From: Octopus vulgaris
Taxonomy: Eukaryota
Length of the DNA: 64,000 nt
Assembly (NCBI GenBank): GCA_951406725.2
Contig: OX597824.1
Location: forward strand, 19,034,001 to 19,098,000
Reading direction: 5' to 3'
Shown: piece by piece, positions 6,705 through 13,578 of the stretch
Numbering within the stretch: the first letter of the stretch is position 1
Layout of the letters: every line of letters begins with the position of its first letter
The notes under the pieces: model-generated
Seen by the model: the letters and a program-made list of their open reading frames with translations, nothing else
What the model was told of the DNA's origin: nothing
Databases searched by the model: none
Translations under genes and position numbers: made by a program

Positions 6705-7957
6705 CAAGGTGCGTAAGATATTTGAGAATAGATGTATGTTTATAAAAAAAAAACAGATATATATAATAACAGATAATAACTTTATCTATCAAAAAATGTT
6801 ATGTTGATAAAAATAAACCTTCTTTTCTATAATGTTATTCAAGAAAGCCACCTTCAGCTTCAACAACTGCTTCTATATGAGATCTAAATCATTTACCTGC
6901 TCGAATCAAGTGGTCCCGATTCATTTTGGATATTATTCTGACTATGGCAGCTTTCAAAGAATATTTGGTGTTATATGCGTGTTCATTGACATCTCTCTCT
7001 CTCTCTCTCTCAGCAACGCTCCACATGTAATAGTCCAATGGATTGATATCTGGGGAATTAGACCAGATGTTAGGGGTTATGTGAACATGAAACTTTTCAG
7101 CTATCCATTCCTGTGTTACTAGAGCCATGTGTGGTAGTGCAGAGTTTTACTGAAACACATATGACATTCCATTGCATACACTGTCTATCCAGAGCTTAAC
7201 AATTATTTCCAGGAACTCAATGTACGTGGCATTGTGGAAATGTAAGGCCTTGTGGAAAGAAGTAAGGCGGCATCATATGTCCTTCATTGCTGACAACCCC
7301 TAAAACCATGACACTTGCAGGAAACCTTGTATGCATAAAACTTGGAAATTCAGAAGGGTCTGCACATAATCGTCTGCCATTTCTTCTGATAACATTTTGA
7401 TCTTCGTTGAATTTTTTTTCGTTTGAGAAAAACCGATTCAAATCTTCCTCTGTTGGATTTTTCAATTTATTTAAGAGCCTTTTAGATCTGATGTAGTGAT
7501 GTTCTTTTGCTTTTTCTGACAAATTGACCTTTCCTCATCATATAATACTTATATCTGATGGACAACATTTCTGACTGTTCCTTCTGACAACATGGAGATT
7601 TTTTGCAATTGACCTCATGGACTTTCTAGGATTGTAATCAATACTCTGTTAAACTTGCTAGATAAATTCAGGAGTCCCGATGATTTCAGAGTGTTTAGAA
7701 CGTGTTTTATGCTTTGATACTGGTCAAATGTTTCAATCTTCAGTCTCTAGCTTCTTAGAAACTTTGAAGACGAAAGATCTAGCAACTTTTAAAAATCATG
7801 TTCAGCCTTTATAACCACAATAACAGTATGCCTCTTTATTTCTTGAGTAAGTTGAGGCTCTGCCATTATTATTTTCTGAAACAAAGATTATACAGAGTTA
7901 GCAAAACATTCAACAGTGACCCAAAAAATGTGTCTTCAAATACCTTACCAAACCCTG
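6705..7957 (-). mobile_element. Decayed full-length IS630-Tc1-mariner transposon, maT/DD37D type
   Basis: Minus-strand peptides FFSNEKKF..., SVMVLGVVSNEG and WSNSPDINPLDYYMWS match DDD transposase motifs (FSDEK, SVMVWG, SPDLNPLDY). Imperfect TIRs caaggtgcgtaagatatttga / tcaaataccttaccaaaccctg; TA on both sides; frameshifted. Confidence 0.85.
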
Positions 7958-7998
7958 TATTCTTTTATTCTTTTACTCTTTTACTTGTTTCAGTTATT

Positions 7999-8368
7999 TG
8001 TCGATGAAATATAATCAAAATGTAGAATCTAGTTTAATGAAGTAATCTAGGAAAGAAAGTTCAGAAATAGGAAATGCAGAAATAACAGCTAAGTGGTGGC
8101 TTTCAGTCGTATGGCATAGAGAAATAGGCAGGCATAGCAACTACGTGAATGGCTCAGAGTCTAGTCGACTAAGAAACAGAGAGCAGGGCAAGTAAGATGT
8201 TTTTATTAATGGAACGCTAGACATTCTAGAAACTTCCAAGAGAAACGCGAAGCTTCTTGAATAATTAAGAATTACTTCTCATGACGTAGATGTTTCGAGA
8301 AACTTATTAAAGGGAGATTACTCTATAAAACTTCTTGCAAGATAGATCATTCAACTATTTTAGCTACA
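7999..8368 (-). mobile_element. Possible solo LTR
   Basis: TG...CA ends (tgtcga / gctaca), ~370 bp, AATAAA on the minus strand near 8205, interrupts a SINE A tail; no TSD found. Confidence 0.25.
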
Positions 8369-8384
8369 GACCAGAGACTACTTC

Positions 8385-8463
8385 ACATGCACACATACAT
8401 AAACACATACATACATACATGCATGCATTAATACATACATACATACGTACATACATACATACA

Positions 8464-8496
<33 letters not shown>

Positions 8497-9310
8497 GCAT
8501 ACGTGAGTACATGCACGCATACGTAAATACATGCTTACAAACACACAAGCATATATACGTATAAGCATGCATATATGCATACATATATTCATACATAACA
8601 TACTTGCATACATGCATCCATGTATACATACATGCATGCAGACATACATACATACACACATGCATAGATATGTACATACATGCATTCATATATAACATAC
8701 TTGCATACAAGCATACATGCATACATACATACATGCATACATACATACATACGTGCATACATAGATACATACATTAATACATACATGTATACATACGTAC
8801 ACACATACATAGGTACATGCACACATACATACATACGTGCGTACATACATACACATACATACATACATACATACATACATACATACATTCATACATACAT
8901 ACATACATACATATATACGTGCATACATAGATACATACATTAATACATACATGTATACATACATATGTACACACATACATAAGTACATGCACACATACAT
9001 ACGTGCGTACATACTTACACACACACACATACATACATACATGCATACGTATGTACATGCCTGCATATATACAGATATACATTAATACATAACATGCTTG
9101 TATTCATACATACATACATGCATACATGTATACATGCATACATATGTGGATGTGTGCATGTATACATACATACGTACATTCATACATAACATGATTGCAT
9201 ACATATATACATACATACATACATACATACATAATGCGTACCTACATACATACGTGTATACATACATGCATACATACGTACATGCAAATATACGTACATA
9301 CATACATACA
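8385..9310. repeat. Degenerate (CATA)n microsatellite tract
   Basis: Direct reading; includes an internal ~180-bp duplication. Confidence 0.9.
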
Positions 9311-11420: not shown

Positions 11421-11586
11421 AGGCACAGGAGTAGTTGTGGGGTAAGTTGCTTGCTTACCAACCACATGGTTCCGGGTTGAGTCACACTGCGTGGCTCCTT
11501 GAGCAAGTGTTTTCTACTGTAGCCTCGGGCCGACCAAAGCCTTCTGAATGGAATAGGTAGTCGGAAACTGAATGAAGCCCGTCGTA

Positions 11587-11663
<77 letters not shown>

Positions 11664-11865
11664 TTGCTTGTCCCCCCACCAAAACAAAAAATTGCTTGGC
11701 AATCGATGCTGGTGTGTTAACATCCCCGTAACTAAGCGGTTCGGCAAATGATACCGATAGAATAAGTACTAGGCTTACTAAGAATAAGTCCTGGGGGTCG
11801 ATTTGCTCGACTAAAGGCGGTGCTCCAGCATGGCTGCAGTCAAATGACTGAAACAAATAAAAGAA
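11421..11865 (+). mobile_element. SINE family A, full length
   Basis: Starts aggcacaggagtagttgtggggtaag; colinear with family A. Confidence 0.88.
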
Positions 11866-12083
11866 TATAATTATATATATAAATATAAGCATACATAATA
11901 TACATTATGTATGTATGTATGTATGGTACTGTATTGTATTTCACATGGAATTGCTGTTTCTCCAAAGTTCTCTTGGAGTTAAAGTCGACTTAACTGTTTT
12001 CTCTGTAAATTTTGGTCTAAAAACTTCGAAATGTATTCCAGAATACCTTATTCACATATTGTTCAATATGTGTATAACATAGG

Positions 12084-12268: not shown

Positions 12269-12309
<41 letters not shown>

Positions 12310-12354
12310 ATTAAAACCAGTGGCCTAGCATATTTAAAAATTCCGAAGATTAAA

Positions 12355-13143
12355 ATACAAAATTTAGAGGATTGACCACTAAAATTTGACAGCCTGTATG
12401 CTAGATATAGACGTCTTAATTGACTAATACCAATTTCTACCCTTATGTAATTTTAAATAATAAAAAAATGTTCTCTAGCCGGTAAATTGACTGCGGTAAT
12501 TTATTAATTAGCTTACCACCCGCTTTGGGCTGCGTTCCCAAGCAACCCGACTCTCGGGCCAATGAACACCGCCGATCGCCGCCGGCTCCGAATGGGCCTG
12601 GCACCCGCTCTGGGCAGCCCCGATCGAGGGGACTCCGAACCTAGCCGGGCGAAACGATCGACCGTGTACGACCCTTGCGCCACAGGTCTCGACGACCCGG
12701 CGCGGCCGACGAGATTCGGCGTTGGGCTTCATCCGGTTCACTCGCCGTTACTTAGGGAATCCCGGTTGGTTTCTTTTCCTCTGCTTAGCGCGCCAAAGTG
12801 AAGGCATTTGGAAGATACACATAAATATCATTTGTGGAACTTTATACAATGCTGGATTTCGGTCGAGCTCTAGAAATTGTATTTCGTAAACGACAGACTA
12901 TGCTGATGATCTTGCAGATGTTTATGCATTCATATACGAAAATATTAACAAGTGAAACTAATTAGTACATAGATAATCGGTTTTTTCTTTATTGCGTATG
13001 TTTTCATTTGTCTTGCTTATTTTTACGCTTTGGTTTTTTGCTGAATTTTTTCTTCGGAACACATTCTCCGTGGAAAATGGCGATTTTGACGTCTACATCT
13101 AGCATACAGGCTGTCCACTTTTAGTGGTCAATCCTCTAAATTT

Positions 13144-13148
<5 letters not shown>
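12355..13148. mobile_element. Non-autonomous TIR DNA element (MITE-like) enclosing a 28S rRNA fragment
   Basis: 12355-12415 and 13088-13148 are 61-bp inverted repeats with 3 mismatches; no transposase ORF inside. Confidence 0.8.
12510..12788 (-). rRNA. 28S: 28S (LSU) rRNA 5' fragment covering the D1 region; dispersed pseudogene, not a functional rDNA unit
   Basis: Reverse complement contains the conserved LSU blocks CTAAGCAGAGGAAAAGAAACCAAC, GATTCCCTAAGTAACGGCGAGTGAA and GAGTCGGGTTGCTTGGGAACGCAGCCCAAAGCGGGTGGTAA; sharp GC-rich island in AT-rich DNA. Confidence 0.93.
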
Positions 13149-13199
<51 letters not shown>

Positions 13200-13201
<2 letters not shown>

Positions 13202-13578
13202 CATGGTTCCGGGTTCAGTCCCACTGCGTGGCATCTTGGGCAAGTGTCTTCTGCTATAAACCCGGGCCGACCAATGCCTTGTGAATGGATTTGGTAGACG
13301 GAAACTGAAAGAAGCCTGTCGTATATATGTATATATATATATATACATGTATGTGTGTGTTTGTGTGTGTGTGTTTGTCCCCCTAGCATTGCTTGACAAC
13401 CGATGCTGGTGTGTTTACGTCCCCGTCACCTTAGCGGTTCGGCAAAAGAGACCGATAGAATAAGTACTGGGCTTACAAAGAATAAGTCCCGGGGTCGATT
13501 TGCTCGACTAAAGGCGGTGCTCCAGCATGGCCGCAGTCAAATGACTGAAACAAGTAAAAGAGTAAAAGAGAGTAAGAG
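13200..13578 (+). mobile_element. SINE family A, 5'-truncated
   Basis: Starts at acatggttccgggttcagtccc; otherwise colinear. Confidence 0.9.

Follow-up and report, generated by a model that had tools for sequence, protein, structure and literature searches.

We analysed a 64,000-nt stretch of Octopus vulgaris DNA (contig OX597824.1, positions 19,034,001 to 19,098,000 of the forward strand; hereafter the window), in which a copy of a dispersed repeat holds a fragment of the host 28S rRNA. The features of the locus, with positions in the repeat given as unit positions and apparent terminal inverted repeats as TIRs, are as follows:

12296–12309, no strand: (TA)n run, left insertion boundary and end of a longer microsatellite (sequence)
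12310–12415, minus strand: inverted 5′ arm, unit ~481–538 then 1–60, with a 10-bp gap relative to copy L002 (family comparison)
12355–12415: left apparent TIR, inside the inverted 5′ arm
12416–12509, plus strand: first part of the forward arm, unit ~56–146 (family comparison)
12510–12790, minus strand: host 28S rRNA fragment, 28S nt 44–323, antisense to the element (comparison with the host rDNA array)
12791–13145, plus strand: second part of the forward arm, reaching the family's main 3′ end (family comparison)
12898–12972, plus strand: predicted type I hammerhead (motif descriptor and shuffles), absent from the earlier note
13088–13148: right apparent TIR, in the second part of the forward arm
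13146–13194, no strand: (TA)n run, right insertion boundary (sequence)

The identity of the insert was assessed by an Rfam search and by comparison with the host rDNA array, which lies on C20 with a period of ~18.3 kb. The Rfam search returned a eukaryotic LSU rRNA match on the minus strand (RF02543, E 1e-26), while the whole window at gathering score gave no match. The piece has a GC content of 64% and runs antisense to the hammerhead strand. Compared with the array, it measures 281 bp and is 97.9% identical to host 28S nt 44–323, with 5 substitutions and 1 indel, 2 of these 6 differences being CpG transitions. An earlier note on this DNA had described a 279-bp GC-rich 28S piece on the minus strand; the piece and the strand held, and the extent was revised to 12510–12790. 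The note had also proposed comparing the fragment with host and parasite 28S. Because the fragment matches the host array, a parasite source is unneeded, the comparison having been made with host rDNA alone.

The 61-bp inverted repeats described earlier (three mismatches) were recovered with 58 of 61 positions identical, and the reported lack of a transposase was matched by the finding that no ORF of at least 150 aa overlaps the element. The repeats are not the termini they had been taken for: the element extends 45 bp further left and ends at 12310, where it meets the (TA)n run. A fixed target-site duplication (TSD) beside the TIRs was accordingly rejected, the left repeat being followed by those 45 bp of element and then by microsatellite. 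The 61-bp sequence is the 3′ end of the unit, and it appears as a TIR because the inverted 5′ arm of the window copy includes that end. In other family copies this sequence is directly repeated or missing, and neither the TA-flanked Tc1/mariner termini nor the AATT-flanked Academ termini previously considered were consistent across the family.

A search of the octopus genome returned 2586 candidates, of which 40 were scored, and these fell into two classes: rDNA, and AT-rich copies of the flanks without rRNA. The unit is head-to-tail, because in the rRNA-free copies the sequence past the right apparent TIR leads on to what stands ahead of the rRNA in the window. The unit period is 538 bp in L002, and two exact ribozyme motifs stand 534 bp apart on C4; no long head-to-tail arrays of the unit were seen. 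A 24-mer from the predicted ribozyme had 176 exact matches in the genome (control, 0), among them an ordinary family copy at G000:C9:104051114-104051137. We mapped 50 distinct other copies, comprising the 22 best BLAST matches and 28 copies from the first 30 of the 176 24-mer matches, after two duplicates had been dropped.

Including the window, a TA-type microsatellite lies at an end of 46 of the 51 copies. The 3′ ends are fixed, at unit 534–538 in 38 copies and at 91–98 in 11, and the 5′ ends vary; among the 28 copies chosen by the 24-mer alone, the 3′ end lies at 538 in 17 and at 91–98 in 9. A direct partial tandem occurs in 16/51 copies. At least 16/51 have an inverted arm next to the element, its length varying between copies; this is a lower bound, since chaining was limited to pieces no more than 25 bp apart. 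The inverted arm starts at unit 90–92 in 8 of these 16 copies; in the window it starts at 60, at another TTTAAT, and the first 5 nt of the forward arm (from 12416) repeat its outer end. The second part of the window's forward arm has a private 14-bp deletion. Several family copies are nested in or adjoin other repeats. The window element itself is flanked by an abundant ~370-bp repeat that contains a (TA)n/(TG)n tract (11464–11870, 13201–13570 and about 15 more pieces), which we take to be SINE-like.

We then compared both insert junctions with the family copies. Empty copies have 20 bp at the insert site, and the insert replaces these 20 bp, with element sequence colinear on both sides. The insert joins the element bluntly at the left; at the right join, 4 nt (12787–12790) are common to rDNA and element, or 6 of 7 when one mismatch is allowed. 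The longest word shared between the two insert flanks is 5 nt. Neither a TSD nor poly(A) was found at the insert, in agreement with the earlier reading of both junctions. In the junction searches of the genome that the note had suggested, either junction was crossed by the window alone among the candidates scored (40/122 and 40/316). Additionally, two 24-mers of insert sequence have exact matches at 16 and 18 places in the genome (complete counts), and the unit lies nearby only at the window. No rDNA was found inside the element in the 50 other family copies, 27 of which span the insert site empty; the copy L069 has a 51-bp rDNA match ~340 bp outside it. These results show that the 28S insert is a one-off in this assembly and is not a family trait.

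The earlier note had weighed a family of rDNA-carrying MITEs against a single insertion into a resident MITE, and had named unique junctions and rRNA-free copies of the TIR sequence as grounds for abandoning the former; both were found. That 28S rDNA is dispersed by a family of MITEs or Pack-type DNA transposons thus appears highly improbable. The inverted repeat of 61 bp, flanked by TA on either side, is real and the element family is dispersed, but the repeat is non-terminal, the copies are 5′-truncated with fixed 3′ ends, and the cargo shows no co-amplification. A MITE was likewise rejected for the element in general: under the chaining rule 35/51 copies have no adjacent inverted arm, the arm spans vary, and 16 copies have the direct repeat. 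Of the second option, the one-off insertion into a resident repeat stood, whereas the repeat is not a MITE and appears to be a hammerhead-bearing retroposon of Penelope type. The locus illustrates cleanly that an inverted 5′ arm of Penelope type, set in a TA repeat, can be mistaken for a Tc1/mariner MITE, which is relevant to repeat annotation.

Another candidate explanation is a misassembly in which rDNA reads were joined to a repeat copy. Both partners are multicopy, and Penelope-like element (PLE) structures are described as troublesome for assemblers (PMC8557442). The sequencing runs contain at most 0.40 of the words and have no bearing on the junctions, which are known from the assembly alone. 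The 6 differences between insert and array are absent from seven array or near-array loci (L024–L029, L031) and from four long dispersed units, which disfavours a chimera of present-day rDNA reads. The colinear flanks, the clean loss of 20 bp and the microhomology also speak against it, and we regard an assembly chimera as quite improbable.

The forward arm contains a predicted type I hammerhead, with a stem I of 5 bp, CUGAUGA, a stem II of 4 bp with a long loop, GAAA, a stem III of 3 bp and a GUA triplet; the predicted cut falls after 12967. The descriptor gave this single match on both strands of the window, and the geometry appeared in 0/3000 shuffles. Across 23 copies, the stems were paired in 98.5% of cells and no stem pair covaried; the core and stems varied less than the rest (1.6% vs 4.2%; cells not independent). 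Rfam made no hammerhead call at E values up to 1. The minimum-energy fold differs from the hammerhead, its stability being no greater than that of shuffled sequences (z 0.24), and the bare hammerhead fold has an energy of +0.3 kcal/mol. Positions 10.1/11.1, usually G-C in hammerheads, are U-U. Taken together, the modelling points to a type I hammerhead motif in the family unit, with core and three stems, as a predicted ribozyme. Stem III and its loop form a 10-nt palindrome, which would allow a hammerhead dimer, and dimer-dependent hammerheads are known (PMC7229834).

We compared the family with animal non-LTR retrozymes (PMC7229834; bioRxiv 10.64898/2026.07.22.740005). It resembles them in its unit, which encodes no protein, is low in GC and has a single type I hammerhead, its head-to-tail arrangement, its dispersed monomers and a proposed PLE origin, the 2026 preprint deriving non-LTR retrozymes from PLEs (bioRxiv 10.64898/2026.07.22.740005). 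The 538-bp unit exceeds the 170–400 nt first described and falls in the 51–972 bp range given in that preprint. Further differences are that most copies of the present family are truncated, that the U-U pair is present, and that the family is known here from sequence alone. PLE insertions are described as truncated at the 5′ end, arranged in partial tandems, bordered on both sides of the unit by inverted repeats that stem from an inverted 5′ copy, targeted to (TA)n and bearing a hammerhead in the repeat (PMC8557442). Across the 51 copies we found 5′ truncation, partial tandems, inverted 5′ copies and (TA)n targets, together with the hammerhead in the repeat. The family differs from PLEs in having no ORF and in its second 3′ end, which lies ~92 bp on, compared with the 30–40 bp PLE tail (PMC8557442). 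These comparisons suggest that the host element is a dispersed, protein-free, non-autonomous retroposon of Penelope type carrying a predicted hammerhead, which would work like a non-LTR retrozyme. A published Octopus vulgaris repeat annotation lists Penelope and MITE families, and its main text does not mention rRNA or rDNA (PMC13282606).

Frames that combine RT with GIY-YIG occur in the genome, with lengths reaching 781 aa. In a search for an autonomous partner, 30 of the 148 GIY-YIG loci with their 1.5-kb flanks gave no significant match to the unit. PLE protein fragments lie within 1.5 kb of the family copies L019 and L051, among the tblastn matches listed. The loci L087, L092 and others belong to a large PLE family with many open frames of 781 aa (RT, a CxxxxCxxC motif and GIY-YIG); 20 of the 30 loci cluster in this family, which is likely young. 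At L089 (90–574), a PLE frame adjoins an inverted repeat of 485 bp that carries a type I hammerhead with a long loop, and this hammerhead is similar to the long-loop type in the window.

Considering the element and the insert together, we judge the locus to be probably a decayed copy of the 538-bp hammerhead element, likely a Penelope-type insertion in (TA)n, in which the 281 bp of host 28S are likely a later patch at a break. At a cut (TA)n target, both ends would prime copying of element RNA. The first arm would be copied from unit 538 down to ~56 and the second from ~60 across the unit junction to 481, and joining of the two arms would create the false TIR. Subsequently, a break inside the forward arm would have been end-joined with a 28S fragment, either a cDNA of rRNA or rDNA, bluntly at one side and through the 4-nt microhomology at the other. 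The forward arm is colinear across the insert, and its start overlaps that of the inverted arm by 5 nt; it is therefore most simply derived from one template, with the rRNA added afterwards. The copy would be a dead end, because it has one hammerhead only, whose cut would separate the rRNA from the 3′ end needed for priming.

The best reading of the insert junctions is a class 2 templated insertion (PMC5110952). The insert falls within the 73–414 bp of that class and has a distant intact donor, a microdeletion, microhomology and neither TSD nor poly(A). The described cases differ in coming from human cells, the timing here is inferred, and the word "ribosomal" is absent from the main text of PMC5110952. 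Chimeras of 28S with LINE-1 (PMC13174262) and tailless retropseudogenes (PMC5322556) are similar in that retroelement enzymes have written 28S fragments of comparable size, without a tail, into genomes. Those cases have TSDs (8–35 nt for the tailless retropseudogenes), lie at the L1 5′ end or alone and are mostly sense, whereas the window insert is internal and antisense, with a 20-bp loss in place of a duplication. The template of the insert may have been RNA or DNA. Pieces of rDNA inside transposons, SINE28 included, have been reviewed (PMC10946416). The event is most likely real but ordinary: one copy of a retrozyme-like retroposon of Penelope type received a single patch of 28S, both kinds being known already. 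As it stands it has little import, being a further rDNA scar in a further family of retrozyme-like elements.

Alternatively, the Penelope-type RT may have captured the 28S piece during insertion itself. During second-strand synthesis, the enzyme would have jumped from element cDNA to a fragment of 28S rRNA and, after 281 nt of copying, would have switched back through microhomology, leaving out 20 bp. The polarity fits, in that the plus strand of the insert is the cDNA of rRNA, and in the inverted arm, too, the plus strand is cDNA. The near-private substitutions of element (10/340) and insert (5/280) did not differ (Fisher p 0.44), so the two ages are inseparable, as a single event would have it. 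Random landings in so small a family would be rare, with 0.004–0.07 expected on a post hoc assumption of 100–2000 fragments. L1 is described as making 28S chimeras with a median of 269 nt, the antisense ones being ascribed to twin priming (PMC13174262); those chimeras place the foreign RNA at the 5′ end, however, and not within a colinear arm. Capture would additionally require two jumps and the resolution of a heteroduplex. Of the other family copies, 0/50 contain rDNA in the element, and 0/12 other dispersed rRNA fragments adjoin the family or a PLE protein match. Breakpoints of L010 and L077 near the same unit position would favour capture, yet by a rough estimate this sharing is within chance for ~40 junctions. 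In the literature searched, we found no case of a PLE RT capturing 28S rRNA during retrozyme insertion. On balance we consider capture at insertion unlikely. If true, it would make the locus a one-event chimera of a ribozyme retroposon and rRNA, and a genomic record of PLE template jumping, with PLE enzymes switching between DNA and cellular RNA templates; as of 2021 the PLE mechanism had no in vitro system (PMC8557442).

Three candidate signals were rejected in the course of the comparison. A breakpoint hotspot near unit position 167 was within chance by rough estimate, as was the near coincidence of the 28S 3′ end of the insert with that of L049 (nt 323 and 324). A weak hammerhead match beside a dispersed rRNA fragment was traced to the (GAT)n tail of another repeat.

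Dispersed pieces of rDNA are frequent in this genome, in keeping with a patch at the window. Among the 18 loci fetched, 10 are short isolated pieces of 139–446 bp, none with poly(A) at a junction or a clear TSD, and the others include multi-kb units with spacers. At L114 (1494–1757; G000:C2:155.98 Mb), three 28S pieces (nt 49–153, 1912–1985 and 1290–1382) are joined out of order, each ~97% identical to the array and without spacer. This looks like template jumping among rRNA fragments, and to that extent it favours capture at the window. The short dispersed 28S fragments L038, L048 and L049 end no more than 4 nt from the Rfam 28S 5′ end, and in L048 the first 65 nt of 28S are set ahead of nt 430–53. 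Ends at the 28S 5′ end and the L114 mosaic hint at RNA templates; spacer divergence could also stop alignments there.

The multi-kb dispersed units (L033–L037, L039 and L041) lie on C1, C2, C3, C5, C16 and C29. Four of these start at about the same 28S place (3485–3492 in L031) and two more within ~10 bp of it. In L031, tandem repeats of ~360 bp (7663–8623) lie in the spacer that separates the 18S gene from the 5.8S gene. Additionally, the same 230-bp 28S fragment occurs twice, 18 kb apart and in opposite orientation, at L131 and L132 (G000:C4:159.50-159.52 Mb), possibly as an inverted duplication.
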